Below are positions 4,388-27,587 of a stretch of 64,000 bases of DNA, piece by piece; the first letter of the stretch is position 1; every line of letters begins with the position of its first letter. The stretch spans positions 1-64,000 of the forward strand of contig CT868047.1 of assembly GCA_000165425.1 (NCBI GenBank), read 5' to 3'. This DNA comes from Paramecium tetraurelia (Eukaryota). The translations under genes were made by a program, and so were the position numbers. The notes under the pieces are model-generated. The model was not told the DNA's origin. It did not search any database and worked only from the letters and a program-made list of their open reading frames with translations.

Positions 4388-5772
4388 ATGCTTTCTGATA
4401 TAGAATAAACTTAAAATAGCTGCTAAGTTTGTAAGAAATAAGACGTAGAATTATCAAGATGCTCTTCTTGCAAATAAATTTATTATTGCTCAATAGAATG
4501 TCAAAAAAAAGATTGGAAAGAACACAAATTTATTTGTTCTGAAATACAATTGAAATAACAGAGAGAAAAATAAAGAGCAGAAAGAAAAGCATAGGGAAAG
4601 AAAGCTATTGAAGATTTCGCAGATTTCGAAGTTTTGGGTCATGGAAATTTTTCAGATATCTATAAAGTTCGAGAAATTGAAACCAATTAAGTCTATGCAT
4701 TAAAATAGATAAATAAACGAAAGCTAACCTAAGTTAACAAGGAAAAAGATGTTTATATGGAAAAACATTGTTTAGGCAAGCTTACAGATAATCCGTATTG
4801 TATTAGGTTATATTCAACATTTCAGGATGACGAAAATCTGTACATGCTTATGCAGTATGTTGATGGTGGAGAATTATGGTAACAAATTCACAATTTTGGA
4901 GCCAGGGCTTTTCCACTTTGTCTATACTATATTAGTGAAATAATTAAAGGTAATTGTTAATTTGACAAAAGCAATAAATTCTATCCATAATATTGGTATT
5001 GTTCATAGAGACATAAAGAGTGAAAACATACTATTAACGTAAGATAAAAAAATAAAGTTTATTGATTTTGGAACTGCAAGAGACATGAATGATCCAACCA
5101 TTGAAGGAAGTGGAAATGGTAGAAAAGGTAAGAAATTTGAATTAATTATAAAGGAAAGCAGGCTTTTAAACATTTTGTGGGAACTCCTTAGTTTATGGCA
5201 CCTGAATGCATAAGGAATAAAGACTCGAATGAAAAATCAGATATTTATTCATTAGGTGTGTTATTTTATCATATTGTTTTTGGTAAGTATCCCTTTGATG
5301 GGAAAAGTGATTATTTGGTGTTTTAATAAGCATTGGAAACGGAACTTCAGTTCCCAGAAGGTTGGATAGACAACGAATAATTTAGAAGTCTTATTCGAAA
5401 GATGTTGTAAAAGGATTCTTAGGATAGACCAACTCTGGCTGAAATAATGCAGGATTAATTGTGGGGTGAGAATTTCGATTGGAATGCAGAGTAAGGTACA
5501 GTTATGATCTTTAGTTAGACTATTAGACTGTTTTAAATGGGTTGAAGGAGATTGATAAGTTTACTTTTGATTTTGCTTTGGAGTTGAACAATGCTGAGAA
5601 ATTGGAGGAGAAGATTTGCGTCAAGTATGAGATTAATAAGGTTTTGGGGAAGTACGAGAAACTGATAAAGGATGAAGATTATTAGAAACGATTCAATTAC
5701 ATGAAATAGATTGTAGAGTAGAATTTGTAAAATAGAAAAGATGAAGATGAGGAGCCGTAATAATTTAGATGA
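4388..5772 (+). CDS. MYND zinc finger fused to an AGC (PDK1-like) Ser/Thr protein kinase, ~437 aa
   Basis: N-terminus CQVCKKQDVELSRCSSCKQIYYCSIECQKKDWKEHKFIC (MYND consensus); kinase motifs LGHGNFSDIY, YALK, HRDIKSEN, IDFGTA, FVGTPQFMAPE; three short introns. Confidence 0.88.
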
Positions 5773-6771: not shown

Positions 6772-9700
6772 ATGAGTCACTCTCTTAAAGAAGCTAATTA
6801 CAGTGTTAATTAAGTCGAATGTGAAATCCTATAAGAATATTTAGGATAGCCCAAGGCTTAGTCATTAATGTATCATTTCCTAATCAATCTTCTTCTAGAT
6901 AGTAATTTGCCAAGTCTTCTGAATTTAACATATTGGTCACACCTTCAGGATTAGTGGTATAATGTTGTGGGAACACAAATATCATCAAGAAATTTGGTAC
7001 TCTTCAAATGTCTAAGGGTACACATATTTGGGAAGTTATAGCAATATATGATTGTAGTTAGATGCAAGTAATCATTGATAATCATTCAAGATTGGAGTGA
7101 GTACTGTTAGTAAGCCAGGACAGGAGAAAGTTTACGTTTAGTCGTTCACAGCAAGCACAATAAGAACGATCACAGTTATTCTAAACATTGAATTGGGAGA
7201 AGTTAATTTTTATTTGAATGGAAATCATAATTAAAAAAAAACACTGCCTGTTGAAAAGAATGCCATTTACGTCCCTCTAGTATAATTTGCACCACACGGG
7301 AAAGTTGCAGCTCTGAACCCTTTTGCTTAGCATCCAAATCTTAATTATCCAAGAATTAAATGTTTGCCACTTAATTTATTTACCAAAACAAATGAGTTTA
7401 AGATGCCAAATTAGGTTTTTACAGGCAATCTCTCTAATATCGAACTAAAAGAGTTCAAACCCAACTAAATGATCAAGATTTCAAACAACTTTATCTACTT
7501 CCACAATAACAAAATGAAATTGCTGAGACCCAAATTAGGATAATCAAATATTCAAGAAACATAATTGGTTAACTTATTTAACAACAAACCTGAGACTCCA
7601 CAGTCTTTGATTTCTATTAGATTAATGAAATAGCATTACGAATTAATTTCAACAGCGTTCACCTGGAAGAAATCATTAACCAATGGATTTACAAACCAAA
7701 ATATGATAGAATAGTTCCATTACTATTGGTTATAAGCAAAACAGTTTGAATCGCAAGTGCTAATTTAAATACCATACATTTTGATGAAATAAATAGTTCT
7801 ATCTCAATTGGAGGAATATGAATAAGACTTTGGACTTATCCTAAAGTAAGATGAATAGGTGGAGAGCTGCAAAGTTCTAAAGATAGTTCGAGTATTATTA
7901 GAAATAGATGAATAATTATATGCCATGACATTAAACAACTAGGAATTTGAAAAGTTCAATTCTACTACTTCATTTAATTTGGTGCCAAGGATATTCTCCT
8001 AATTTCATAGATTACACACCTTCCTGGATTCCAATAATTATCCCTATGATATCATATCACTAACAGAACTAGGATTAATGAAGCTCCCTGGTTTCTCAAA
8101 TCTATTTAGACACTTTACCAACTACAGACATCAAATTGAACCAATAACATATCAGAATGATCTATCTAGTATTTTGCCAGCTGAAAAGATCTACAGTTAC
8201 ATTGATATTCCATTAGCTTTGACAATCAATAATATTCCATATGTAGATTTGGAGCCCAACTTGCAAATGGTAAAATCAGTCAACGATTCAATTTATTTCT
8301 CACTTATAAATGAAGAAGGAAGGATACAAGTATGGAATGGAGAATTAAGTTTACACAGATGCTTATAATTTAATCTCAGATCATTTGAAGAGAAAGTTGA
8401 AGATTAGAATTCATTGGCTCCATTGTTTGCTGAACCATAATCAGAGAATAATCCTTCATCAAATATTGAAAATCAAGATAGTCAAAGTGAGGAAGCTTAA
8501 GAAGCTATTGTTCCAAATGAAGATTTATTAGAATAACTTTACAATATGGGTTTTTCAATAGAGGCTTCAAAGCAAGCATTGATAGAAACCAAAAACAAGA
8601 TCGAGGAGGCCATTGAAAAAGTATTCACAATTGAGGAGCAAAAAGCTAAAGAGAAATAACAATCACAATAATAAGAAGTTAAATTACCTAAATTAAAACC
8701 TTATTGGACTTGCAAGGAATGTACACTACTTAATTCAAATGAAAATCTTAAGTGCTAAGCATGTGATGCCTAACCTCCCTAAGATGCATTTGAAAAGGAA
8801 ACCGCCATTGTAATCTAGGAACAGCAATTAGAATAGCAAACAGAAATTACAGAGGAAAAGATTTAAAAGATACAAGAGGATAATAATGAAAAACTTCGAA
8901 ATATTTTCAAAACCTCGAAATTATCAAATCTTATTTAAATCAGTCTATAAAAACCATTTAGACATTTACTATTTGCCCATGTGTTTACCACAGAATAATA
9001 ATCGTATTTAGTTCTTAACCGATTCTTCCAGAGTATCAAATACTTAGGTTAATTTTTTAGAACAAATAATGAGGGAAACTATTCTATACTAACGAATAAG
9101 TCATATTCATAAATAGGCAATTATTAGAACTTGTTAAAATTACTAAATGAAGGAGAGAATAGTAGATTCATATATGAAACCTTATACCCAGTTTTAACTG
9201 TAATTATGATGTTATATATTGTTAGCAATCGCAAGAAGAATTTGAATTTAAAGATCAAATCATTTTAGCAATAGATGAAACCATATCAAACCTATTTTTC
9301 CAAGACGACATGATTGTTATTTAAGGAGCCACAAAGATTTGGGAATGTGCCTTATTTGAAGGTAAATTATACAATTATCATATAAGGTGAAAACTATCAA
9401 CCAAAATTGGCAGTTGCCTAAAAGTAAGAAAAGGCAGTTATTACAAATCAATTGGAAGAGGCCATAGAAAAGGAATAGGCTGTTATTTAATAAAATGAAG
9501 TGGTTGAATCTTTTGATGATTTGACAAAATTAACACCAGAGGAGATCTCTGATTTGGCTAAATTGAATGAACATCAAGATGTCTACTTCCAACCTATTAG
9601 CAATAACCCCATGCTCTTATCATAATAGAAGGGGGATTCTTGGGCCAATATCATTGTAGACGTTGACCAATCCAGTTAGAATTAGATTGAGTTAAATTTG

Positions 9701-12700
9701 GTCAATTAATAACAAATGATGAAGCTATTTGTGACAGGATTCAGTGACAAAAAGTCTCAGTTTAAATCTGAAGGATGGGTGTCTATTGATGGATTGAAAC
9801 CTGAGAAAGATGATCAATTGCCCCTTACTATCTTTACCCACAAGGGATCTCAATTTAATGTTCAATAGTGCATATCCAAAATATGCTTTGTTTAATAAGA
9901 AATATTCTCCACTGTTTATTCAAAGCCAGAATTTATCTTCAAGCATCTACATGGGAAATTGATGAGTTTTTCTAAGTTCTAAGTTGCAAGTCCAAATAAA
10001 TTTTAAAATACAGGAGTGCCTCTAGGATCTGGTTTGATATTTATTGGAAACAACGCCAATGACTTTTTGTATTGTTAGAAGTTTTCGAATTTCAACAAGG
10101 AAAAATATCAAGAATGGTTAAAGGAAAGGCAAAAGGATATTAGACCTTTGAAGCCTTGGGAACCAGTGGCCTTTTTTGAATTGGGGGCAAATGAAGAGTA
10201 ATTGACATTTTCCTTAGAGAATCCAAAGATTGGAAAATATGTGTTATTAATGACATTATCAGCAAAATAGACAGATCAAGTGAAGTTTGAGTAAAATCCT
10301 TTGACTTTGAATTATTTCGTTGCTTATGGTACTGTGGTGAAGGAAAATATGGGAGATTAATTAGTGTAAAGCCAACAATCCCTTGAGCTATTTAGAGACA
10401 TTACATTAAAAGTAAATGGTGCTGTTTTGGATAAGGATTAATGTTAATTCAGAGAGGACACTTATGGTAATTACAATAAATATATCTGTGAAATACCGGC
10501 ATCTTTATTAGCTAATGTTCAAAACATCAAAATCGAATTCCAAAAATCAGACATTAGTTTTCTCCAAATCAGTGGGCTCAAACAAAAAGATATCAACTAG
10601 AAACTTTTACAAAAACTTCCTTAGGCTCATCTGATTACGACTCTTATGCACGATGTAACTAAATATGATGAATTTAATTAAAAGTTAATGCAACTAATAC
10701 ATAACAATAAAGCAACTCAATAATAGAGATTTAGTGCAATAAAGGTGTTGTGCAAGTTGTTCTAAAGTATTCCTTAGTTTGTAACCATATGCTATAAAGA
10801 TTTGGATATTTTAGAGTTCATCAAGTTAAACTTACTTGCATAGTAATAGGAGGAAGAATCCAGTGTCTAAACTTTCTTTTAATTATTCTTATCAATCCCT
10901 GAGTTCAATGGTCAATTAGTCAAGGCAGTAAAAGACATCATAAACAATATCTTTACATTATCTGATATTATAAAACCAGCAGGATTCATCCAATTACTTC
11001 AGATGTTGAAGAAGTATGCTTCTTAGGACTCGAAAGAATATTATCCTTACATTTTAAGTCATTTAAAGCAAATTGCAAAGTTCATTCACAAGGTTGATTC
11101 ATCCTACTTCAATAAGTTGAATCAATTTTAGATTTTCTTAATGTTGACTGAAGAATAATTGTTTTCTGATAGATATTGTAAATTAACCTAATTTGCCGAA
11201 GACACTCCATTGATTTCTCAAGTGTTAGGAGAAGTATAAAAACAGATTGAAATCAGTAACAAAGAAAAGGTAGACCCTGAGAAACCTAACAACATGATCA
11301 ATATCGACATTAATATCAAGAAACCTCTATATTCAATCATTGTGTTCTCAAGATAACCTCATTATGACGAATATGTAATTGATCTGCTATCCTAATTCGA
11401 TGTCCATCAATTCTAATTAGTGTTTAATACTCCTTAGATAAGTTGTAGAGTAGTTAGGGTGACTTTGTTTAATGGTTAGACTAATTAGCCCATTTTGGAT
11501 GTCACTCTACCAGATTGGCTCCTAGTTTAATTAACAAAATATGCTGATTAGCATTCTGCAAATATGCCAAAGAGCAAACTGAATATTATGTCATGGAATA
11601 TAAAGGCTTAACAAGTGAGAACATTGAAATTATAAATAACATATTCATTAACTGCAGCTACTAGAACAAAGGAGGAGAGTAACATAGCTCCAAAGGAATT
11701 GTGCATCATTCCTTAATTCAAGGGATAATTGAGTTAAAATTTAGAGAAGTTTGGCCAAGACAAGGATCAGATTTAGAGTCAAGTGTTGTTTACAGATGGA
11801 GATTTTGTATTCGAGAAGGAGCTAGGTTTTCCCAATTCTTTGAAATACTAGAAATACAATAATCAAGGGTCTATTTACTTGGATTCAGCGCAGGTTTTGG
11901 GACTCAAACAAAAATACGTGATATTAAAAATAAAGGAATCAAATAATTTAAATGGTCCTCATACATAAATACAGTCATAATATTATAGAGCCCTACTTGT
12001 TTAAAAGCAGAAGGAATTAAAGTAAAAGTTGCAGCAAAACCAAGGCAAAGAAAAGATCCAAGACACCATTTAAATCATTAGGAAATTGTAACTTGAATTG
12101 ATCCAAGATCCAAATTCAAATATCAATCTTAGTAAATCCCTAGATTTCTTGTATACATATGCATACGAACTAATAAAGATATTAATTCATGCAGATTCTA
12201 CTTGTCAATAATGGAGATCAGACGTGGCTTTAAGAGAACAAGAAGGATTGAAGATGGCCTAATTAATTTACAAGACCTTTGTGTAGATGAATCAAGGACC
12301 AATCACAGATCTTAGTTTTTAATTGCTTAATATAATCTTAAGCAACTTGAATCTTAAGTATTGGATTCTATTTACATTTGCTCAATATCAGAAAATTGAC
12401 TAAGATGCCAACATTCTAAATACCTTGAAAATACTTCACATCCCAATATGTTAAACTATAATGTACATTTCAATAATTCTGAGCGAAAAGCAACAGATCA
12501 AACAAGCCCAATAGTTAATAGGGTTGGTGTTAACTAAGTTGGTGGACAAGCAATTCAACAACAAGGAGTTGGTGGATCCTCAAATGCAAATTAAACCATT
12601 GGGAACTCTGAGATCAACAAGTAGTTAAGATTTAGAGATAGGATAGGTGGAGAAATTAACCGATGAATGTTTCGAATTAACAAAACCAAAAGTATTCTCA

Positions 12701-15700
12701 ACTCTATTTTGCATAATGAAATGGACATTACAAAATTAACAGCAATATCAAATCTAAGATGTACAAAACCTATTTCTTAAGACTTGCAATGTGTTGATGA
12801 AACTAAACAACGATGAACTAATTCAATTTGTGACTGAGATCACTAATCCCACAGATCCAACACAATCGGGATTGTTCTAACTATTAGCCAATGCATTATA
12901 ATCGAGTGATTCCAACACAATTCTGAATCAAATCAAACAAGTTATCGAAAAGTTATGCACTCCCCAAACATACAAATTAATATTTTATTTCTTCTAAATT
13001 GTATTGAATGCCATCGTTAAGCATGCTAATGAGAATCTTTCAATATTCCCACAGCCATTGGATAGTTCAGCTTGGTTCTAGTTTTTGTCCTTTGTTGTGG
13101 GACAACTATTGCTGCTTTCGAACATGAATCTTACACAAGGAGAGCAGAGATAAAACCAAAGGAAGAGGTCAATTAAATATCAGGCTGCTTAAACCTTTTA
13201 GGAGTTCTCAGAGAAATTTGAAGAAGGGGGATTTATTTAGATATGCAACATTGAAACACTGTCACAGATGATAAGATTCTTGATTGAGCCAAGAAAGAAT
13301 TTGGTCAACAATGAGACTTTGGAGAATTCATTGACTTATTGGGGTTTGTTGTTGAATTTGATGAGCAAAATTCCAACCTAATTGATTATGGAACACAAGA
13401 TATACGATTAATTATTGTCGATTTACTTGAGATTGGATGCCAACAAATAGGCTGTGATATAATTTAGATTTATTGAAATGACCAAGTCTATTTTAGAGCA
13501 CACTTAAAGTACAGAATTCAATAGCAATCTAATTAAACAAATCTTCTAATATTAGGGCACCACTCTCATAGATGGATTACTCAACATTGTAGCATCTTAG
13601 GAAAGGAAAATCAATGCATCCATATTTAAATTGATATTCTCAGAGACTGCTCAGTACTTATACAAGTATTGTAATGTTGGCAGACACGATGGAGTTTATA
13701 GTTGTGAGTTGTCCTTGCTTAAAAAATTATAATTTGGAAACAAATTGCTGTAATTAATGAAAAAGGCAGAGTGTCCCATTAAGGTATAGATGCTCATATA
13801 GGAGATACCTTAATACGGAGAAATCATCAACAAATACATCCACTGGTACATGCTCAACAAGTCAAATGTGCCTAATGTTACTCCTGCCACTGAGATCTTG
13901 GGAAGCATCAGTAAACAAGTGCGATAAATCTTTGATTGGCTATAGGCAGATTAACAATTGTCAACGGAATCCCTGATTCAACTGTTTAAATTCTAGAAAG
14001 AGTTTGATGTAGTTGTTTAGGAACAGATGAATCAAATGACAAATATTCTGAGTTATTCATTAATAAAACACACCCAAGAGATCTTTGAAGAGTTGAATGA
14101 ATTGTGGATGACCACTGATTAAGTTGTTAGGGAAATAGCTATAAATGGAAATGGCTTTGAATATTTGCTTGAAAAAACCCATTTGACTTCTTCGACCTTT
14201 GAGGAGAAGACTGAAGCAAGTGAGTAGCAACCACAAGAAGAGGAGTTTGCAAATAAATTGGCTATGATTGATCCTCAGAAACCCCAAGGACAATAGTAAC
14301 CATAGGTGAAGGATTGGCAAGTGAACAAAAAAGGAGTCAAGGCCAAAGTTCACGTTTTAACTCTCAAAGACGAATTGTCTGAGGATTACATACTTGAATT
14401 CTAATTGGAAAAGGCGATTGAATTGAAATAGATCAAAATTGGGTTTTAAGCATACACTCCAGAATATAATGATAGGATTCTGGGTGTTCCAGACATAGTG
14501 GTTGTTGAAGTAAAGAATAAGACTTCAGATAATCTGTGGTATCCAATTGGCATCATGACTTTAATTGAAGATGAAGCATACACCTATTATAGTGTGAAGG
14601 TGATGGCCTTGAATGTTTGGAGATTATCTGCTTAGGGTAATTTAAATCAACAAATTAAGTCATTGGGTCAATAACCAATATCATACATCAGATTCATTAT
14701 GAAAAAGCCTTAGATCACATTTTTGGAGTAGATCTCACAATTATCTTTCAAATAATACAATAACATCCAAATTGGAGTGAGTTTCATTTCCATCACAGGA
14801 TTCGATTCCACAATCAATAGGAACAAGTAAATTTAGACAATTTAGGAGAAGACTGCAAGTAGATTGTTGGGTAAGATGTGTTCTTAGAAATTCAGAAATA
14901 CTTTGTTTGATATCAGCAATAATCAGAATATTGTGTAATAAATAAAGAAGAGCTTTAAGAATATCAGTTAGGCATTGCATTCAAATGAGTCTACATTGTC
15001 GCCACTCTTTATTGGATTGACAAAGTATAATCCAGAGTTTGGAGATTGGGTATTGGAATAAATAATGGACATCACTTTGGAATGGGCACATGCGAAATTA
15101 ACAGCTGAAATAGTGTTGTAGGACAAGGATAAACAATTGGATAGATTAAAGAAATTCTTGAATTACATTTTAAATCAAATCAAATAAATCGCTTAAATTG
15201 CCAAATCATAGGATCAATTCACTCAACTCACCCTTTTGATTGAAGCCTTAACTTATGCGATACTCATCTCAAGCAAGTAAAAGAACAAGGACCCAATATT
15301 GTTAGAAGTGGAAGAGGAGGACTTCTTGAATATTCTGTAGGCAGTAGAAGTCACTAGTCAATCCTATGAGCATTGCAACATGATAATCAGGTTGTTCATC
15401 ACTCTTATTAAATTGCCTCAGCCATATGTTTTGAATATGCAATTGCAATAGACTGGCATCATTGACATGACACAATAGTTGTTGCAAAAACAGTCACTAT
15501 ATAAACTCAAATTGTTGTCCATCTTAGTACAAATTAGCAATGAAGTAGTGAGTCTCATTAAGCCTTACTTACCCAAAATCTTTGAGCAAACAATTGAATC
15601 ATTGAAGAAGACAGACAACACAACATTGTCTGATTACTTTTTCTTCTTTGACTCCTCAGCCAATGTTCTTGAACTCAAAAACTTCTATTGTGAGAATGAT

Positions 15701-18700
15701 TATCATTTACAAGTTTATGAGAACTTGAAAGTGTCCAATCCATCCAAAACCTTATTAAAATAAATTGATTAATTGACATTGGGTCATATTGTGAACTTCA
15801 TTGGCAAGATAACATTGTCAAATCCATAAGCGATTGGGCAATTGGCTTAAAAGTTGATTCAGGATATCAATCTATTGTCGCAAATCGTAGATATCAATTA
15901 TGTAGAAAATGTGCTTATACCTTTATTGAATTTCGAGGAGAAGATCGATTTCACAATTGACATTTGGGACAAGGAAAGTCAGATATTTGTTGGAGACATC
16001 AGAAAACTGAGTTCTCTTCACGTTCAAGAGGATGAAACTAATGAAGCCAGTGGATCTCACGAATTGAATGGATTCCAGGCCAAAGAATTCACTCCCCAAT
16101 ATTACGATGCTTTGCAATCAGCTATTTAGAAGGTTATCAAGACTAATTCACTCAAGAAAGGAGGAAGATGGGTTAAAGAGATGGAGTTATCATAGGGAGG
16201 TTCATACTTCCATAAGACATTGTCTACTTTGCAAAAGGGACCATTTTTGATTTTGCTATTCGGAAAGAATAACAATCAGAACGAAAATTGTATTATTGGA
16301 TTGTTCAGTACTTAGAAATGTGGAAATTTGGTTAGTGAATTTTAACATGACTATTACCCAGGAGAAGTGTATCCAATTCCAGAGAATGGAGAGCAATTTG
16401 GATTCACTTACGAAAAGGATAAGATCTATCATTTGTTGAATAATGATCGCAAAACATTTGGAGTTGGAATGGATCATGTCAATGGTGGTTCATTCTCATT
16501 TTTATTAGAAAGAATCAATTTGACATTCTCTGATGACCAGGAAGTTTCAAGCATTTCAATTGGAATTCACGACTTTGAATTATTGGAATAAAAGCCAGAA
16601 GAAGATTACTATTTTGATGATTTCTGGATGCAAAGAATGGAAATTTGGATTTACCAACAACCACAGTAGGTGTCTAAAAGCACTTAGAAACCATTGTTCA
16701 GTGGACAACAAGGCAATTAGTTGATTGAAACCAATGACACTTCTACTTTCGGCTATGGAATTCTAAGCAATCCAATTCTGTAGGATAAATACTTTGCCAA
16801 ACAATCCGTCTATAACTACTTGAGTGCTACACCAGTATATTCCATTCCAGGTAATTGCAATAACACTAACATTCTGTAATGCATTTACGTTTCCAACATG
16901 TTCTTGAATGAATAGGCAATCAAGAACTCTACCATTATTTAAATGAATGGCACTCTGATCCAATAACAAACCAAACCATTCCCAACATTTACAGTTGATG
17001 GATTAGAATTGTTAGGACAATTAAATTCCCTTACTGAAACTCCATTGTAGTATTCCTCATCGTTGAAAATATTTGAAGCCTTCTAGAATCAGGATGGAGT
17101 CAAACAAATTATCTTGGCAGTTTAGGATGCTACTAAAAAGTGGTAGAATCAAGAATTGACTTAAATCTGGAATTCTTATGTATCTGAATTGAGTGCCTTT
17201 TGTTCAGTACCACAATTCTTCAGTTACTTTTTGAAAAATAAGAAATCAATGGAGTTACTATTCTAATTACTGGCAGGAACTCCCGATCAACCTAATAGCG
17301 ATTAAAAGGCTTGGAAAGAAAAAGAGATCGATGCAGTGAAGTTCATCTATGACACCTTATCAGATGTTTTCAAGACACACAACAATCAAGAAATTCGAAT
17401 TATTGCCATCAAGGACAATTTAATATAGAAGATATTGGATAAAATTGCTATTGTCAGTAAGGAAAAGAAAAGAGTGTATCAAGCTGTTATTGCTGAGGAG
17501 CCATAACAACCACCATAATAGTAATAGCCTTAAGCACAGGGGGATAAGTCAGTTGATAGGAAACCAAAGAAGAAGCAAGGTGTTGGTTATGGAAGTGATT
17601 AGACTGGACAGAACTAAAAGTGGAATACTCAGGAATATTTAGATAAAAAGAAGGTTCGATCAGAATAATTAAAGTCTCTTTTGGAGATCATTAGAAACTT
17701 TTTCAATTATGATAATTGGCATTTAAATTAAGAATTATCATAGATAATAAATGAAATGATATTTGAAAGTGCATTGTTATCCTTATTAGAGGCTGCATTT
17801 AGATCAGGTTCATTGTTAGAAATGTCAAAAGACTTTGATCTCAATTTATGTTATCTTCAATTAACAAAAACATTAGCCAAACATAAGAACCTCACTCCAT
17901 TATTATTAAAAATACCTCCTAATTATATACCGAAACAAATCGAATCTATAGCATAATTATTAAGCAATCTTAAGAACATTGCTCACATATTCTTATCTTG
18001 TCTACAAACCAACGAGTTATCCGAGAAGGATTAGATCTCAAAACAGATTGCTACCATTATTCTTGAGACAGATACAAGTGTCCAAGAAGCTATAGAAAGA
18101 TTCTAATGTGATGAGTCAGAGAATGAATAAGAAGACGCAAAAGAACATGAATTGCAAGAGATACTGAAATTGCCATTGAATGAAGCCTACAGATTGTTGT
18201 TAAAGGACTTGAGATTCGACTATGTGTCATTCAAAGGGTAAAACCAGCAATATCTCCACTATTATGAGAAACAAATTACTCAGGCTCCTACTCCAACACC
18301 AGCAAAATTGATTCGTCTAGCCTAGGAATTCGCTGATATGTCCAATTCTCTACCTGTTGAACACACTAATTCCATATTTGTTAGAGCTGATAAGGATAGA
18401 GTGGATGTAATAAAAGCATTGATTATGGGTGCATCTGGAACCCCGTATGCTCACGGAGCTTATTTGTTTGATATCTACTTTGAAGACTAATACCCCAATA
18501 CTCCTCCCAAGATGAATCTATCTACTACTGGAAGTGGGAAGATCAGGTTTAATCCAAATTTGTATGCCTGTGGTAAGGTGTGTCTCTCACTATTGGGAAC
18601 ATGGAGAGGACATGCATCTGAGAATTGGGATCCCAAGTTGTCAACCATCTTGTAAGTGTTGGTGTCCACCTAAGCAATTATCATGTCTGAGGATGTGTAC

Positions 18701-21700
18701 TTCAATGAACCAGGGTTTGAAGGGGAAGCAGGCTAATAGGATGGCGAAATGAAGAATGAGGCCTATTCCAACATTGTTAGATACGGAAACATCCAATATG
18801 CTATGATTGAGAATATCAAGAATCCTCCCACTGGATTTGAGACTATTATAAGAAGACACTTCTATTTGAAGAAAGGAGAAATAATGGAGGAAGTCAGGAA
18901 ATGGGTTCAGTATGCTGAGCAAAGACAAGCCTTGTATATGGGATTGGTGAGCGATCACAATAGTCAATGGTGTTCAGTGTTCAAGAAGTCTAAGACTCAG
19001 TATTTGGATATGCTCAAGGATGCAACTGCTGAACTTGAAAAGGCTCTCAATAGTTTGTAATAGCCAAGCATCAAGGAGATCAGTCCAAAGTTGAATCAAA
19101 GAAGAAAGAAGAAGCAATAGGAGAATTAAGTAATTGTTCAAAAGGCCACTGATGGCATACTTAATTTAGAAGGAGTTGATGTGACCTATGATAGTAATGC
19201 TATTCAAGAGCAAGTGATAGATGTGAGTAATGAATAAGTGAGAGATAGATGGAGCAGATACATCGGAGCAATGGGAATTGAAGCTGTTAGGAAGTAAGCA
19301 AATGCAAAAGTCTTACTCTGCGGAGTGGGATCCTTGGGTGTTGAGATTGCTAAAAACGTGGTGCTTTCTGGAGTTGGAGTTTTCGCTATCTATGATAACA
19401 AAGTGGTGAATCAGGATGACTTGGTAGGGTAGTTCTTCCTTTCTTAGTCAGATGTTGGCAAACCGAGGGCTGCAGCTTGTGTTGATAAAATTCAGCAGTT
19501 AAATAATTATGTTAGAGTCAAAGTGATAGAGAAGGATGTGCAATAGTATATAACCACAGAGCAATTCGATATCGCAATATTGACAGATGTCTATGATTAC
19601 AACGAACTAGTTTGTTGGGATAATCTGTGCAGAGCCCATTCAATTAAGCTTATCATCGCCAATGCCAATTCTGTTTATGGAAGAATCATTAATGACTTTG
19701 GAGCTGAATTCAAAGTAATCGATAAGAATGGAGAAGACATTCCTGATGTATTGATTAAATCGATCTAAGCAGATGGAGTAGTTGAATTATTGGATGGTCA
19801 GAGATCTCAATTTGCAGATGGAGATTCAATTATATTACTGGAAGTCCAAGGCATGAAGGCAGGAGAACAATCAATCAACAATCAGCTTCTCAAGATCCAA
19901 ACTATTTCTACTAAGAAATTCAAGATTATCGATGACATCTCTCAATATTCTCCTTACCTTTCGAGTGGAATTGCCAGACATGTCAAACAAACTATTACAT
20001 GTACTAATAAATCCTTGGATGTTGTAATCAACAGTGATGATTGCTTAGATGCCAATTTGAAGGAGAGTGATAGCATCAAGCTTGTAGAACAGAGTCTAAT
20101 GCATTTAGCTTATAGAACACTATCATACACCAACGGAGATATTGTCAATCTCCTCGACTCTGTGATTAAATTTGATAAGGCCAATTTCATCCAGTAGAAT
20201 TCCAAACTAGCTAAGTATTTAGAATTCTATCTCAAAATGTTCCAAAAGACCTTTGCATTGCCAGCATTCCCTCCTTTAGCTGCCTACTTAGGAGGATTTG
20301 TGTCATAAGAGATAATCAAAGCACTCACTAATAAGTTTACTCCCATCAATCAAGCCTATTATTTTGATTGCATCGAAGTGTTGCCATTTGAAATCTGGGA
20401 TGAAAAAGGAGATTAATAGGCTTAGATCCAAGCAGTTGATCAACTTTAATTGACTGGAAAAGATGCATTGACTAAATTATTAGGGGAGGATGTGTATCAG
20501 AAGGTGAGAAGTACCAATTTATTCATGGTTGGATGTGGTGCTATAGGGTGTGAATTGCTAAAGAATTTTGCCATGATCAATTTAAGTATTGACGGGTAAA
20601 TTACTATAACTGATCCTGATCACATTGAAACTTCCAATCTAAATAGGTAATTCCTATTTAGAGAGAAACACATTCACAAACCTAAGTCTTAGACTGCAGC
20701 TGCAGCAGCAATTCAAATCAATCCACTACTGAAGGGCAAATTGATTGCAAGAATGGACAAGGTTCACGAACAAACCGAGAATATTTTCCATGATCAATTC
20801 TTCGAGTAATTATCCCTTGTTGCCAATGCTCTTGATAATGTCCAAGCAAGAAGATATGTCGATCGCAGATGTGTCAAGGCCAAGATTCCATTGTTAGAAT
20901 CAGGCACTCTGGGTCCCAAAGGCCATGTGTAGTGTATCATCCCATTCCAAACAGAATCATACAACAGCATGCAGGATCCAGTTGAGGAAGGAGAAATTCC
21001 TTACTGCACTTTAAAGATGTTCCCTGAGGAAACATTCCATTGCATTGAGTTTGCCAGAGACAAGTTTAATAAGCTATTCTCCTTAAAACCAAAATTGGCC
21101 TAGAACATCATAGAAAATCAATCATTCAATCCATCAAATCCAGAAGAGATCAAATAATTGAAATCTACTATCAAATTACTCCAATAGGCACCAACCAAAC
21201 TTGAAGATTGTATTCAATGGGCAAAAAATAAGTTCTCAAAGTACTTCATCAATGACATTAAATAACTACTGTACACATATCCAGTTGATGCCAAAACTAA
21301 GGATGGACAACCATTCTGGAAATTACCCAAGAGACCTCCAAGATGCTTGAATTACGACATTGAAAATCTCATCGTTGTCTAATTTATATCCACAATGGCT
21401 TTCCTTAGAGCCAAACAATACAATCTGCCCACACCTGCCGACTGGAGACATGAGAAGAACAGACGAGATGTAGCCACCTTAGGAGAGAAGATGACAAGCA
21501 AGGAGTGGATACCCAATGATTCTAAGAAGAAGGAGATCGAGGAGCAAGTGTTGAAGTTGGAGAACAAAGCCCAGAAGCAACAAGAGGAGGAATAGGAAAA
21601 TGCCATTTTTGATGACCCCAACAAGTTATTGGCACAACTGTAGGGTTTGAAATAAGCAGGGTATTTGAATATATATATTATTTTTAGAATCAAATTGTTC

Positions 21701-22327
21701 TCGTAAGAATTCGAGAAGGATTGCGACATGAATGGACACATCGACTTCATTCACTCTCTAGGAAACCTAAGAGCTTTGAATTACGGACTCGATGAAATGG
21801 ATTGGATCACAGTTAAATTGAAGGCCGGAAGAATAGTCCCAGCCTTGGCCACCACCACAGCTGTAGTATCAGGACTCTAGACGATTGAATTAGTCAAAAT
21901 CTTAAAGAGGTGCAAACTTGAGAACATGAAGAATGGATTCATCAATTTAGCTGTGCCCATGGTACAATTGACTGAGCCGATGAAGGCGGAATCCATCAAA
22001 CTTAACGAGGAAGTGAATGTCACCTTATGGGACAGATGGGATGTCAAGTTGGGAAAAGAAATTACCTTGCAGATTTTGTTCTAGCACTTGAAACAAACAT
22101 ATCATTTGGAACCGGCTAATGTTTTCAAGCAATCTTCAGTCGTTTATATGCATGACCTTCATAAGGGTTCAGCCATATTCACCTAGCCTATTATCGAATT
22201 GCTGGATGTCAAGGTACGCTATTAGTATTATGATTAGAATGATTATGTGGATTTAGTAATTAATTTTGTTAAAGACGAGCAGATCCTTAAGAATGTCCCA
22301 GAAGTTAGAGTCTACTTTAACGAATGA
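6772..22327 (+). CDS. Giant (~5,130 aa) ubiquitin-system protein: SPRY - UBA - NZF/RanBP2 zinc finger - BIRC6-like body - BIRC6/BRUCE-type E2 (UBC) - complete E1 ubiquitin-activating enzyme (UBA6/UBA1 family)
   Basis: Six introns (6870-6898, 7068-7090, 9200-9225, 9362-9386, 21661-21687, 22214-22237) restore one frame. ORF-track fragments at 8078, 15479, 15854, 16367, 17756, 18749, 19580, 19790 and 21395 all share that frame. [23 protein letters not shown] (Cys 18581-18583). E1: [54 protein letters not shown] (Cys 21005-21007), [27 protein letters not shown]-terminal UFD. Not every codon of the 12-kb exon was checked. Confidence 0.92.
6960..7325 (+). other. SPRY-like domain at N-terminus of the giant protein
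   Basis: Spliced translation [22 protein letters not shown]...[20 protein letters not shown]...IYVPLVQF follows the SPRY pattern (G-x-H-Y/I-W-E-V, IGV, I-G/T-V-x-L-D/N, FY-x-NG, Y-P). Confidence 0.6.
8515..8775 (+). other. Tandem ubiquitin-binding modules: UBA domain and NZF/RanBP2-type zinc finger
   Basis: [33 protein letters not shown] (UBA MGF motif), then [22 protein letters not shown] (W-x-C-x2-C-T-x2-N-x6-C-x2-C). Confidence 0.85.
18300..18840 (+). other. BIRC6/BRUCE-family UBC (E2) domain within the giant gene
   Basis: [56 protein letters not shown]...[36 protein letters not shown]...STILQVLVSTQAIIM...[11 protein letters not shown] replaces HPN, as in the BIRC6/UBE2O/UBE2Z group. Confidence 0.93.
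19240..22324 (+). other. Full-length E1 ubiquitin-activating enzyme module (IAD-FCCH-AAD-SCCH-UFD) within the giant gene
   Basis: Inactive adenylation domain ([22 protein letters not shown]), active adenylation domain GxGxxG at ~20531, catalytic PYCTLK, and UFD ([10 protein letters not shown]...VPEVRVYF). Confidence 0.95.
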
Positions 22328-22433: not shown

Positions 22434-23740
22434 ATGGGTAATTGCTGCGGATAATCCTCAATCATGGAGTGTCACTAGCAATAAATTGTCACCAAGGATC
22501 TCTTAGGTGAAGAGTATGCAAACAAGGCTGCATTAACGATTCAATGTAAGTCACCCTTTTTATCGCTCAAGCCTATGTTCGAGGATATTTGATTAGGAAA
22601 AAGCATAGAAATCACAAAAATAATAGTGTGGCCATCACAGCGACCAATGAATATAGTTACTCAAACAAACAAAGCAGATAAGAAATTTAGTTGGTCGATT
22701 TAAAAGGGCTCAACTCTATCTCCAAAGAAACTAACATACCTCAAAATCTCAAAACTATCGAAAAGGTACCAGAAACGCTTGACAATTAAACAAAATCAGT
22801 ACATTTATTCTTTAAATTTGATTCCCTTTTTTAGTTGAGGCAAGGCCTACCCAAATTTATTTATGAGGAGTCCCAATTAGAACCAGGCTTGATAACAAGA
22901 GGACCCGTGCAGGATGAACTTGATCATATATATATAGGTTAATGGAAGGATAAGTATAACCCTTGGCTATTTTAGTGCAAAATGGGGTCGAGGAATCTAA
23001 TATTGGTCGGATGGCTCCTACTATGAGGGATACTGGAGGGATAATAAATAAAATGGAAAGGGAAGACTCATCCATGTGGAAGGAGACGTTTACGAAGGCG
23101 ATTGGTTAGATGACAAAGCCCACGGCCAAGTAAATATATTCCACAAACCATTATAGGGGAAATTGACCACTTCCAACGGAGGATATTATGTTGGCGGCTG
23201 GATTAACGACAAATAAAATGGTTAAGGCAAGGAACTATGGCCAGATGGAGCAAGTTTTGAAGGACATTATGTTGACGGCATGAAATTTGGTTAAGGCATA
23301 TACACTGTTGCCAATGGTTCTCAATATGTGGGAGAGTTTGCAGATAATTGCTTCTGTGGTTTTGGAACTTACAAATGTTCGGATGGAACTAAATACATAG
23401 GGTATTGGAAGTAAAATAAAATGAATGGATAAGGAGTAAAATATTTAAACTACTTTTAGGAGTTTCATTGGAATGATGGTTCAAAATATATTGGAGAATT
23501 CCTAAACGATTTAAGAGATGGATTTGGCACATTTTATTATGGCGATGGAAGAGTATTTGTTTGTTAATAGCATATTAGATTTATAAAGGGTAATGGAAAA
23601 TTGGAAAAAGACATGGCAATGGAACTTATATTGGGAGAAACAAAGTGGAAAAATAAGGCAAATGGTAGAATGGAATTTTTGTAGTCTGGGAAAAATAATT
23701 TACAAACTCCTCCGTTGGTGACGATGCTCTATTTCATTGA
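22434..23740 (+). CDS. MORN-repeat protein with N-terminal acylation motif and IQ motif
   Basis: Starts MGNCCG (myristoylation/palmitoylation-type), IQ-like [15 protein letters not shown], then many Y-x-G-x-W-x3-K-x-x-G-x-G repeats (e.g. [27 protein letters not shown]); several short introns. Confidence 0.88.
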
Positions 23741-23898
23741 ATTAATTTTTATAAACTTTGTAATATTATAAACCAAATTCTTGTTTTAATTAATGTTTTT
23801 CTAAATTAAAATTTTGGATTAGTTTACTGGATACAAATATTAACTTATAGAAGACAAGATTGATTAATTACATAGCCCATACAGTTATCATAAATTTA

Positions 23899-26598
23899 TC
23901 ATGCAAAGCTTTTATAATTGTTAAAGGTATACGATGACATCATTTTTAATGCTTCTTTTGTTTTTTACTTTTATTGAAGCTATTTATTTAACAAGGCTAA
24001 TCTAGCAATCTCATTTTCTATGTTTAATGTTTCTGTTTAATTGAAGTCAAATAAGTCTTCAAATATAATCATATTTTGTATCAACTTTGATGATTAGTTA
24101 ATTGCTATTGTTTGAATCTCAACACTCTGATCCACTTTAACCTGCTGCCTTAAAACGAAGGCTATATTTTAAAAGCATTTTAAAGTATCTACATCATTTT
24201 TATCAGTATTTTCACATAAGCTTAACATTTTGCAATTTAATAAATTGATAAGACTTTAGGGATGACGGTAAGTTAAAATTGTCTCCCATTCTAATTTGTT
24301 CAAAATAAATAAAATTTCAGTATTTGTTTCAGATTGTAAATACTATTGGATGATAAAATAGATCTGAGGTGTATATTGTCCCTTCATAAATATCAAATAT
24401 AGCATTTTTACAACTCTCTTTATCATATATATTCTACATTACGAGGATTGTATTTTATTTACCACTTTTAAGATATGCTAAATGGTGCTTTAATACTTTG
24501 TGCTTTGAACAAGGTATATTTCGCAACTCAACTATTGAAATAATACTTATAGAAGATAAAGACCATTCTCTTAATCAACAGATTGCATAGCTTTGTTGAT
24601 TAAAGATAAAGCCTTTTGAAATTTCTATTACTTTAGGCAGTAAATCGAATAATGATAATAAATCTCCCAATCTTAAAAAAGATTCCTTTATTTATAATAT
24701 TCGATGGTTGTTTCAAAAAACTCCTCTACTTAGATCTTATCTTCAGATGTTAGAGAATAATTAATGGTTTGAATTAAATTTATTAATATTTGTCTGATCC
24801 CATATTTATCTGCTCCTCTTTCCTCTAATTATTTTATAATTTCTTTAGGATTAGCTGAGCTAATCCCGAAATGAAATAGTCTTTTTTAAAACTCTAATTC
24901 TAAACTCAGGAACTCTTTAGATTAAATGTGGTTATTATCTAGAGTATAATTATATTGCAAAAAGATCCAAGTAAAATTATAAGAAATTCTTAGAAGAAGT
25001 AAGGTAATTTAATGCTGGAAAGCTTTGTCTAAGATTTTTGAAATTTCACTTACCGTTTCAAGCCAACTTTTATCTAAGTAGCTTCTATACAATTCTAATC
25101 TCAAATATGATATGTCATCCACCATATATTACTCATCAGTTAATTCTGTTACAATTTGACGAGCCTCTTCTAATTGATTTAATTCAATTAAACAATCAAT
25201 TTCAGATAACCTATAACTTATCTAATAATCTTAAGAGTACTTTTGTATTTCTAAACTAGCATTATATAATTATTGAACATTCCCTAATCGAATGTAATAC
25301 ATCTAAATCAAATTATATTACCATTGTTTGGTGTTGGAGTTAATCTCGAGTAATTATTTATCTTCTACCTACCGAAATTCAACTTATTACAAAACATCAT
25401 ATTTTTGTAAAATTTGATTGACCTTTTCCATTGACTTTGTTTTATACAATTAAGCTAAACTAGGTACATTCTCATATGTATTCAATTGATACCTTTACCA
25501 AATTTCAGCGTCAGAAAACCTAAGTATCTTCTATTGTTTGATAATTAATTCAATAATATAGTCCGGATTTGCACGGTTATCCTCATATTGACGTTTTAAT
25601 CGTTCTGATTATTGTTATTAAAACTATTATTATAATGGAACTTTATTCAATCCAATAAGTACATTTAATTTAATGTAATTGTAACTCTTACCATGAATTT
25701 GAAATTCAAAAGGTAATTTTGTTAAAAGGCTCTCATTATCCAACATTTACTATAACTGTAAAATTGATAACCCCTTTTTGTATATCTATAACATTGAGAG
25801 CAAGAAGGCGTATATATCATTATCGAAAAGATTTTGTTCGCACTCAATTTATGAAAAATTATTTTTTAATAAACCTCTTAAATTTGGTGGCAAGTACTAC
25901 TTAGTACCTTAAATTAATTGCTTTTCTTTTTATTTTTTATAAAATATTGCACAACCGAAGTCAGCAATCACCCACCCCTTTTAATCAGTATACATTATGT
26001 TTGATAATTTAATATCTCGATGAGCTATTCTTAAGGAATGCATTTCCAATATTTATTATAAGATTGAATGATAAATGCTTAGAAATTCATTATATTCAAT
26101 ATCAGCATTGGAAACATATTCTGATAATGTTGCAGATGCAAGTTCCATTCCTGCATAAGTAGTAAAATAATTTACGCATTCTTATATTATATATACTCTA
26201 TCAGATAGTGCTAAAGAGCTATTAGGAAATTTCTTGTTCAATAATGTCTAAATCTTGTATTCATTCACTTGCTGTAGAATCTCCTCAGTTTAGCATCTTT
26301 AATGCACTTTTACAGCACATAAATATTTTGAAATCATATGCCAGCATATGAAAACAGTTCCAAAGCTCCCAGCACCTATTATTGGTTGATTTTCATTTAA
26401 ATAAGTTTAATTCATTTTTTATGATATATCATATGGTACCTCTTGGGCTATAACAAAAATATCAGGATTTTCAGAAACTAATTTCAATACTACTCTTTGA
26501 TCGAAAGAATAATTCCTTTCTATGTTATTTGCCAAATTTAAATAACCTCTGGTCTCATCTGATCCTGAAGATGAAATAGACATTGATTCTTAATTCAT
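23899..26598 (-). CDS. Divergent Ser/Thr protein kinase with long C-terminal extension, ~900 aa
   Basis: IGAGSFGTVF, CAVK, AHRDIKLSNIM, IADFGCA, GTKQYLPP; ATG-to-TGA span is 2700 nt, consistent with one frame. Confidence 0.8.
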
Positions 26599-27587
26599 TA
26601 AATAAAATATCTTGAATTAATTAAATTAATGTGATTACAGGTTTTATTGAATACTATTATATGAATTAAAAGATTACAAATGAAATATTATAAGCAATAA
26701 AATTCTTACTAATTTGAGGAGATAACCTTTTAGAATATTATTATATCAATTAAATATTTACAATAATTTTCATTTATAAATAATTATTTATGAGAATTTT
26801 AAAAACTGAAATTGGTTAATTTGGACAAGCTAGAAATAAAATCTATTAATTAGTAAAAAAGGAATCATATTAGCTATTTCATTTAAAAGTATTGATTATC
26901 GTGAATAAATGAATTCTTTGAACCATAATAAATATACAATATCTATATTTTTAACTTATTAGTTAATATCTTTGTAAAAATAACTAATATTTTGACTCAA
27001 AATTTCATAATTCTTTATTCTTGCTTTATTGCAATATAACAAAGAATTTAATAGTTATTGTAGTGTAATTCCATGATAATAAATACAATATTAACTGAAA
27101 TTTATAGAAAAATGCATTCCTTTGCTACTATCCTTTTCATCTTTTTTTGAATTAATATTAATACTTAATATGTTATTTTTTCAACACTTAACCAAATTAT
27201 AAGATATTCATAATCCAATTTAGTGATTAGATAAAGTGCTTACATCCTTATGGCTATTGATTTAATCTTTCTATTAAGAACCTCTAATTATATTGCTACT
27301 CAAGATATGAAATAAATTTTATTTATATATAACTAAGCAATCATCCATAAAGTGAACTAAAATACTAACATGAAATATGAAGTTCACTAAATACAGTTTG
27401 TATTGATTATATTGATCAGGTTAAACGCACTAATAGAAAAAAGAGAGTTATTAAAATCAGTGATTATAAATCTACTTGATATTGATAAAATTATTTCTTA
27501 TCTTATGAATGTTGATTGAATCCAATCCTGCAGATGTGTAAAAAAAATAATGATATCTAATTAATAGATTAATTCTTGAATAACTAA

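Follow-up and report, generated by a model that had tools for sequence, protein, structure and literature searches.

The question raised by the locus described here is to which lineage a ubiquitin-activating enzyme (E1) belongs that is fused, in a single chain, behind a ubiquitin-conjugating (UBC) domain. The locus lies on the + strand of the first 64,000 nucleotides of the Paramecium tetraurelia contig CT868047.1 (GCA_000165425.1), a stretch here referred to as the window. Single-chain ubiquitin E1s form two branches, UBA1 and the UBA6-type enzymes, and a sequence-only reading of the window had placed the fused E1 with UBA6 and its UBC domain with BIRC6. The present analysis found the fused E1 outside UBA1 and with UBA6-type characters. 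It is likely the ciliate descendant of the ancient paralogue behind the UBA6-like enzymes of animals, amoebozoans, Mantamonas and Anaeramoeba, and would form with its UBC domain a self-charging E1-E2, that is, an activating and a conjugating enzyme (E2) in one protein.

All translations used code 6, the ciliate nuclear code, in which TAA and TAG specify glutamine. The main open frame (9314..22327, +) consists of 4337 codons, including 211 in-frame TAA/TAG codons read as Q, and it contains a complete E1 preceded by a UBC domain of the BIRC6 type. The E1 module (19157..22324, +; P0002) has 1056 residues as translated and comprises the inactive adenylation domain (IAD), the FCCH domain (19769-19987, +), the active adenylation domain (AAD), the SCCH domain (21023-21817, +) and the UFD (21944..22321, +), recognized by the Pfam families ThiF (twice), E1_FCCH, UBA_E1_SCCH and E1_UFD.

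All nine motifs named in the sequence-only reading are present under code 6; they lie within nt 20528-21877, in the AAD and the SCCH, and are read in frame 1 of the + strand. They are the ATP-binding glycine motif VGCGAIGCE of the AAD (20528-20554), TDPDHIE (20609-20629), HIHKPKS (20669-20689), KGH (20918-20926), ESYNS (20954-20968), the 11-residue motif around the catalytic Cys (20984-21016), ARDKF (21053-21067), NGHIDF (21731-21748) and VSGL (21866-21877), all on the + strand. These strings are conserved enzyme motifs, not chance matches, and alignment to the solved human UBA6 chains confirmed four of the human UBA6 strings given for comparison (ESYNS, EE-EIPFCTLK, ARDKF and NGHIDF). The GxGxxGCE, TDxDxIExSNLNRQFLFR, PxCTLK and NALDN motifs are all present in the E1, whose catalytic Cys codon (21005..21007, +) lies in IPYCTLK, just behind a one-residue insertion seen only in the fused E1s. 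The catalytic motifs of both the E1 and the UBC domain are intact and, judged from its sequence, the E1 is apparently a complete and active enzyme of the ubiquitin type.

A fused protein would also be obtained if neighbouring UBC and E1 genes had been read as one frame, given that the frame was read from stop to stop from DNA alone and that at least one short intron was read through. Such an artefact is highly improbable here. The frame runs for 13 kb without a TGA, annotated proteins are fused in five ciliate genera, and transcriptome-derived fused members (EukProt and MMETSP entries) keep the same domain order. The linker from the C-terminal extension of the UBC domain to the first conserved E1 motif, DRWSRYIG (18926..19243, +), has a length of 106-126 residues in 35/35 aligned fused proteins, which are relatives from many sources; this conserved length would fit a geometric constraint.

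As the sequence-only reading had supposed, the UBC-E1 fusion is not confined to this locus but widespread in ciliates. With the E1 module as query, the best ~55 of the 120 matches listed among proteins of near length carried both the UQ_con and the E1 families, and the next-ranked of the matches listed were free-standing E1s, mostly named UBA6 (from invertebrates, sharks and Balamuthia), together with a few animal or fungal UBA1. Longer proteins gave 68 matches, most of them with the UQ_con and E1 families. The named fused members come from Paramecium (three species), Tetrahymena (two species), Ichthyophthirius, Pseudocohnilembus and Platyophrya. The Ichthyophthirius member is named 'ubiquitin-like modifier activating enzyme 6, putative, partial', and a Tetrahymena thermophila SB210 protein of 7545 residues (XP_976852.2, 'ubiquitin-activating enzyme E1') shares a 90% cluster with P0133 (P0133 / P0459), which includes a fused UBC-E1 protein of 3915 residues. 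The nearest relative, a 4650-residue protein of Paramecium sonneborni (P0123), has an E1 module only 48% identical by BLASTP (54-55% over the columns kept for the trees), and the window protein is therefore not among these annotated ciliate proteins. The fused proteins of Paramecium fall into at least three size classes (~4620-4650, 2601 and 1850-2014 residues), indicating that the fusion was duplicated within ciliates.

Dozens of fused UBC-E1 proteins of ~1650-2010 residues in ENA sequences (clusters P0024, P0050 and P0053 and their relatives) each fill a whole contig of 5.0-6.6 kb. They were called without in-frame stops and lack the giant N-terminal scaffold, and their contigs may represent gene-sized chromosomes from ciliates with the standard set of stop codons.

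The UBC domain with its N- and C-terminal extensions (18161..18925, +) has the UBC of human BIRC6 as its best solved match, and Pfam UQ_con corresponds to residues 3001-3142 of the main frame. Scores against solved chains were 237 bits for human BIRC6, 218 for Drosophila BIRC6, 139 for UBE2O and 101 for UBE2Z, and the alignment spans residues 4522-4782 of the full-length human BIRC6 chains, including both extensions. The catalytic Cys codon is found at 18581-18583 (GKVCLS), and the blocking-loop Trp that matches human W4673 is retained. The five-residue insertion loop of the BIRC6 UBC, which according to PMC13623948 clashes with UBA1's gate helix, is present and aligned gap-free, as it is in 35/35 aligned fused proteins. 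In contrast, residues 1-2950, before the UBC domain, gave no match at E<=0.01 in a phmmer search against all solved chains, full-length BIRC6 included, and the BIR family was not found at E<=0.01 in the 4337-residue frame or in the 744-residue upstream frame (the scan starts at nt 7079). The label 'BIRC6-type' is therefore justified for the UBC domain only; the proposal that BIRC6 itself is one side of the fusion holds for this domain and not for the scaffold in front of it.

To place the E1, residues were counted at the proposed signature positions in 46 fused E1s (window row excluded), 35 animal UBA6, 16 protist UBA6-like and 140 UBA1 sequences. The H of KGH, common to all UBA6-like E1s, was present in 44/46 fused E1s, 35/35 animal UBA6 and 16/16 protist UBA6-like enzymes, whereas UBA1 had N in 120 sequences, S in 13 and H in 7. 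The K of ARDKF was found in 28/46 fused E1s, 35/35 animal UBA6, 11/16 protist UBA6-like enzymes and 10/140 UBA1. An aromatic residue or H preceding the catalytic Cys is common to the fused E1s and UBA6, but not UBA1, and the H of HIxKPKS occurs in 45/46 fused E1s, 31/35 animal UBA6, only 1/16 protist UBA6-like enzymes and 25/140 UBA1. The signatures listed by the sequence-only reading differ in diagnostic value from one position to another. VGCG and NGH are homoplasies of the window sequence and a few relatives rather than traits of the fused family, and the P of TDPD, present in 46/46 fused E1s, was seen in just 2/35 animal UBA6, those of a shark and of the sequence closest to it, against N in 31/35, the residue of UBA1 being M in 115/140.

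A further set of characters maps to the SCCH. The inositol hexakisphosphate (InsP6) pocket of human UBA6 is formed by W640, K644, S647, K652, K687, R691, K706, K709, Y710 and K714, and it overlaps the predicted E2 surface (PMC9391358). The pocket sites were mapped by hand on the alignment to human UBA6, and the corresponding SCCH stretch of the window (21053..21260, +) has F, K, K, K, K, Q, K, K, Y and D, respectively. Basic residues at eight pocket sites number 6 in the window, with means of 5.04 in fused E1s, 5.89 in animal UBA6 and 4.38 in protist UBA6-like enzymes; UBA1 has a mean of 0.90 and a maximum of 3 (n=140). The SCCH of the window is thus predicted to contain a basic InsP6 pocket of the UBA6 type.

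The UFD gave a similar picture. When compared alone with solved chains, it matched human UBA6 over the whole domain (residues 927-1048; E 6.6e-8) and yeast Uba1 over the first 60 residues only (E 0.6), and human UBA1 gave no match at E<=10. The domain ends in PEVRVYF and includes the strand motif YVDLVINF; a YVDLxVxF strand unites the UFDs of fused E1s with those of UBA6-like enzymes, the corresponding stretch of UBA1 being longer and different. By sequence, the UFD is of the UBA6 type, for which PMC12999496 describes shorter helices. The UBA1-type residues that were looked for (KGN, TDMD, few basic pocket residues and the long UFD stretch) were not found in the window E1. For all six domain segments taken singly, the fused E1s were on average more identical to UBA6-like enzymes than to UBA1 (45/47 to 47/47 of them where a score could be given), and overall this held for 47/47, with a small margin (0.395 vs 0.359).

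Two proteins from EukProt transcriptomes, P0186 (2165 residues) and P0188 (2282 residues), have the reverse order, with a full E1 at the N-terminus and a UBC domain ~400-550 residues further on. Their UBC domains are 40-42% identical to that of the window, including the TTGxGxxRFN loop. The pair was included in the trees, where its E1 changed position: it grouped with the fused ciliate E1s in the tree of the inactive half (97.7/100) and with UBA1 (90) in the tree built with posterior mean site frequencies (PMSF).

For the trees, relatives with at least 850 module residues matched (181/189 proteins) were thinned at 70% identity to 100 representatives, to which 132/148 proteins found with a UBA1 profile were added under an equal coverage rule. 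Named free-standing UBA6-like enzymes in this material come from animals, the choanoflagellate Stephanoeca, the amoebozoans Balamuthia, Phalansterium and Cavenderia, Mantamonas and Anaeramoeba. A FastTree phylogeny of the resulting 232 rows separated 47 fused, 2 E1-then-UBC and 51 UBA6-like proteins from 132 UBA1 with a support of 100. A tree of 59 hand-picked rows and 928 columns, built in IQ-TREE with the LG+C20 PMSF model, gave approximate likelihood-ratio (SH-aLRT) supports of 99 for UBA1 (30 rows), 100 for the fused E1s (12 rows), 94 for 14/15 UBA6-like rows and 90 for UBA1 together with the E1-then-UBC pair. A third tree (IQ-TREE, LG+F+G4) used 40 of the 59 rows, after 13 long-branched UBA1 (P0306, P0271, P0282, P0260, P0238, P0283, P0232, P0242, P0199, P0222, P0234, P0206 and P0228), 3 fused (P0166, P0180 and P0024) and 3 UBA6-like rows (P0068, P0075 and P0325) had been dropped, and it separated the fused, UBA6-like and E1-then-UBC proteins from UBA1 at 97.2/91. 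In all three trees the fused E1 lies outside the UBA1 clade, which ranged from 17 to 132 sequences.

Fast constrained searches under LG+F+G4 were also run on these 40 rows, with log-likelihoods of -56712.3 for the free search, -56755.0 for fused plus UBA6 against UBA1 plus E1-then-UBC, -56728.0 for fused plus UBA1 against the rest and -56731.6 for fused plus E1-then-UBC against the rest. These values were discarded because the thorough free search (-56708.5) satisfies the first constraint, which means that the fast search had stalled.

The root was probed by aligning the IAD and AAD halves of 40 proteins together (80 tips and 166 columns), either half thus serving to root its counterpart. In the AAD half, the fused E1s grouped with 11/12 UBA6-like rows (81/76) against UBA1 plus the E1-then-UBC pair (86/58), and the twelfth UBA6-like row, P0235, split first at the root (62/57). 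In the IAD half, the fused and E1-then-UBC proteins together (97.7/100) had 11 UBA6-like rows as their sister group (79.7/83), and a UBA1 grade surrounded them. Neither half placed the root on the fused stem. Half-against-half rooting thus favours, with weak to moderate strength, a grouping of the fused and UBA6-like E1s. With the root between UBA1 and the rest, one old duplication would suffice, and the three subclades (Amorphea with Mantamonas, Anaeramoeba, and ciliates) would mirror species groups. Taken with the shared characters, this parsimony and the weak rooting make orthology of the fused E1 with UBA6 probable.

Several observations from the trees, from overall similarity and from single residues weigh against a placement with UBA6. 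The full-length trees have no outgroup, and no verified free-standing ciliate UBA1 is present in any tree. The central node of the PMSF tree, where the fused, UBA6-like, Anaeramoeba and UBA1 lineages meet, is unresolved and close to a polytomy, and in the LG+F+G4 tree the fused and UBA6-like E1s group at only 23.6/30. The fused E1s form a clade of their own on a long stem (0.34-0.49) and are not nested in animal or amoebozoan UBA6. The maximum-likelihood phylogeny that the sequence-only reading had proposed as a check therefore sets the fused E1 outside UBA1 without establishing, in unrooted trees lacking a ciliate UBA1, a sister relation to the UBA6-like enzymes; likewise, its view of the E1 as being of the UBA6 kind holds for the exclusion from UBA1 and for the characters of the AAD, SCCH and UFD, but the family is a separate clade and no member of animal UBA6. 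Full-length trees alone cannot separate a sister of UBA6 from a sister of UBA1 and UBA6 together and, with three clades on a near-polytomy, the label 'UBA6 lineage' depends on the root. The half-against-half probe has its own limits, namely 166 columns, a connecting branch of 3.5 substitutions and supports of 16.9-83 at the key nodes. As to similarity, the UBA6-like and UBA1 enzymes are closer to each other (0.408) than the fused E1s are to either of them (0.395 and 0.359). Overall similarity hardly discriminates: the best identity of the window module among UBA6-like rows, 0.413, is close to its best among UBA1 rows, 0.411, and the scores against solved chains were 564 bits for yeast Uba1, 561 for human UBA6 and 532 for human UBA1.

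These observations would fit another origin, in which the fused E1 represents a third, ancient paralogue, or else a lineage that can no longer be placed, having split off before UBA1 and UBA6 diverged. The KGH motif, the basic pocket and the UFD type would then be ancestral and lost in UBA1, and the fused E1 would work like UBA6 without being its orthologue. The midpoint root falls on the fused stem, the central PMSF node is unresolved, the fused E1s resemble either family less than the two families resemble each other, and they have characters of their own in the P of TDPD and the one-residue insertion before the catalytic Cys. We regard this origin as unlikely, though it deserves to be kept in mind. 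A root on the fused stem would need an extra duplication, before the supergroup split, and more losses, of the third paralogue outside ciliates and of UBA6 in ciliates, as judged from the named taxa. The half-against-half root never fell on this stem, whose length may reflect faster change after the fusion.

Among the single residues, C in VGCG is confined to 3/46 fused E1s and G in NGH to 5/46; 31/46 have A at the first site and 26/46 have F at the second, as in UBA1. Of the pocket sites, R691 is replaced by Q and K714 by D in the window; 42/46 fused E1s have D or N at the latter. In the UBC domain, the sites of human BIRC6 E4603 and E4604, which PMC12999496 describes as specificity determinants against UBA1, are occupied by K and D, and across the fused family the first of these sites most often has K (19/35). 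A complementary charge for this K was sought in the UFD and none was apparent, the V990-K991-M992 sites being S-S-V. Both the pocket and the UFD lie on or close to surfaces that bind the E2, and pairing with a BIRC6-type UBC could yield convergence there.

Convergence is what a second alternative calls for, namely that the fused E1 arose by a duplication of UBA1 peculiar to ciliates, evolved fast after its fusion to a BIRC6-type UBC and came to resemble UBA6 on its E2-binding surfaces. The E2-facing position of the pocket and the UFD, including the overlap of the pocket with the predicted E2 surface (PMC9391358), and the UBA1-like A and F at the VGCG and NGH sites agree with it, and the trees contain no verified ciliate UBA1 that would exclude a sister relation. 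Such a duplicate should nest in the UBA1 clade, which includes animals, fungi, giant viruses and other eukaryotes, yet the fused E1s stand outside it at 99, 100 and 97.2/91. The best 120 matches to the module include no free-standing E1 named as ciliate, while they do include animal UBA6 and a few animal or fungal UBA1. The KGH motif sits, in our reading of its position, in the adenylation core and not on the E2 surface, and identity favours the UBA6-like enzymes in all six domains, including the IAD and the FCCH. This makes a derived UBA1 copy improbable, and descent from the UBA6 paralogue is the reading that we retain.

A candidate for the ciliate UBA1 was a 23-row AT-rich clade in the UBA1 tree. 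It was rejected after a profile of 14 of its members retrieved UBA1 of arthropods and other animals and two giant-virus E1s, and no named ciliate. Ten further representatives of the candidate search led to Neoconidiobolus, Helobdella and Anaeramoeba names, and to no ciliate. In a metagenome scan with the UBA1 profile, 0/80 loci had the many in-frame TAA/TAG without TGA expected of a code-6 gene, and no telomere-like ends were found at these 80 loci. The giant viruses Edafosvirus and Fadolivirus (P0369 and P0381) encode full-length UBA1-type E1s, and that of Edafosvirus groups at 99 with the AT-rich metagenomic E1 P0233 inside the UBA1 clade. At the base of this clade are two very long-branched E1s, P0306 from Neoconidiobolus thromboides and P0271 from Helobdella robusta, which may represent additional, diverged E1 copies, one fungal and one from a leech.

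Among known systems, human UBA6, which has been solved with the BIRC6 UBC (9qgw_B, 9xgb_A and 7pvn_A), is like the window E1 in being a full single-chain E1 with KGH, ESYNS, ARDKF and NGHIDF. In addition, 6/10 InsP6-pocket residues are identical, the S647 site having K, the two UFDs align along their full length, and the partner is a BIRC6-type UBC. UBA6 charges BIRC6 and UBE2Z and leaves most UBA1-specific E2s uncharged; for such a specificity of the window E1, its covalent link to a BIRC6-type UBC is circumstantial evidence. The two enzymes differ in that they share ~38% identity and that the window E1 stands covalently behind its UBC, with the changed R691/K714 and V990-K991-M992 sites and the insertion before the catalytic Cys. 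FAT10, the second substrate of UBA6, is a vertebrate protein and is not known from other organisms. UBA1, as represented by yeast Uba1 and human UBA1, is alike in domain order, catalytic motifs and overall score, and unlike in having KGN, TDMD, few basic pocket residues and a longer UFD stretch. Human and Drosophila BIRC6 (BRUCE) share with the window protein the UBC with its extensions, the insertion loop, the blocking-loop Trp and giant size, whereas the window protein carries an attached E1 and K/D at the E4603/E4604 sites, and a BIR domain was not found in it. The annotated ciliate proteins (P. sonneborni P0123, T. thermophila XP_976852.2 and that of Ichthyophthirius) have the same UBC-then-E1 order. 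Finally, Cap2 of bacterial CBASS also joins E1 and E2 activities in one chain, but it is prokaryotic and ATG7-like, with another type of E1 and E2 and a non-ubiquitin substrate; the relation is at the superfamily level only.

The gene probably extends upstream of the main frame. An open frame of 744 codons in the same reading frame (7079..9310, +; 7079-9313 with its stop) is separated from the main frame by a single TGA (9311-9313). It holds a UBA domain at ~nt 8513-8617 (Pfam UBA_7, 2.3e-8) and a RanBP-type zinc finger at ~nt 8702-8773 (Zn_ribbon_RanBP, 3.1e-4, below the curated cutoff), and the Paramecium relatives of 4620-4650 residues also have the UBA and RanBP zinc-finger families. This frame is probably the 5' part of the giant gene. 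Two AT-rich stretches that begin with GTA, of 26 nt (9200-9225) and 25 nt (9362-9386), flank the TGA; splicing them out would, in this model, keep the frame open across it, and the whole gene therefore probably has ~5000 codons or more, with a start at or before 7079. Within the E1, a 27-nt stretch (21661..21687, +; GTA...TAG, 89% A+T) is a probable intron. Its length is a multiple of three, it was read through in the open frame, and it translates to nine residues opposite a gap in human UBA6. Further introns that were read through may be hidden in the 13-kb frame. Downstream of the gene, under code 6, a frame at 22893-24044 (+) has MORN repeats (5.5e-28), and a frame of 948 codons on the opposite strand (23899-26745, -) has a protein kinase domain (5.6e-20) and also matches TPR weakly.

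A description of a eukaryotic UBC-E1 fusion was not found in the open-access papers searched, older subscription work on E1 evolution being outside the search, although the fusion proteins are already in public databases under uninformative names. In the accessible part of a 2025 review of E1 enzymes (PMC12355090), Cap2 is the only E1-E2 fusion discussed. The sequence-only reading had further suggested that a UBA6-like lineage exists well outside animals. Free-standing forms do occur in protists, but this is not new: Balamuthia and Anaeramoeba enzymes were already annotated, and PMC11864663 traces UBA6 back to the ancestor from which fungi, slime moulds and animals descend. The UBA6-like enzymes of Mantamonas and Anaeramoeba and the ciliate fusion are beyond the range given there. 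The conservation of BIRC6 and UBA6 is treated within Metazoa only in the available text of PMC12999496, where the words ciliate and Tetrahymena are absent.

The most likely mode of action can be sketched as follows. The E1 would adenylate ubiquitin and bind it through a thioester at the Cys of IPYCTLK; the UBA6-type UFD and the SCCH would dock the UBC, whether from the same chain or from a partner chain within an oligomer, and ubiquitin would be handed to the Cys of GKVCLS. The large N-terminal scaffold, with its UBA domain and RanBP-type zinc finger, could present substrates, the outcome being a self-charging E1-E2 machine independent of the pool of free E1. It is conceivable, and we put it forward only tentatively, that the pairing of a UBA6-type E1 with a BIRC6-type E2 is older than the split of ciliates and Amorphea, and maybe dates to the last eukaryotic common ancestor, that ciliates froze it into a self-charging E1-E2 chain, perhaps with ligase (E3) function, and that P0186 and P0188 represent a second case of this pairing, either independent or rearranged.

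Why mammalian BIRC6 accepts ubiquitin from UBA6 alone is a question taken up by several structural papers published between 2022 and 2026 (PMC12999496, PMC13623948 and PMC13065764). The ciliate fusion provides independent evolutionary evidence that this pairing is functional and old, and suggests that the UBA6-BIRC6 pairing of mammals is much older than animals. It also supplies dozens of co-evolving E1/E2 interface pairs, each in a single sequence, and a candidate system for E1-to-E2 transfer without a diffusible step. The known range of UBA6-type enzymes is thereby widened to free-standing forms in choanoflagellates, Amoebozoa, Mantamonas and Anaeramoeba, and to fused forms in ciliates.

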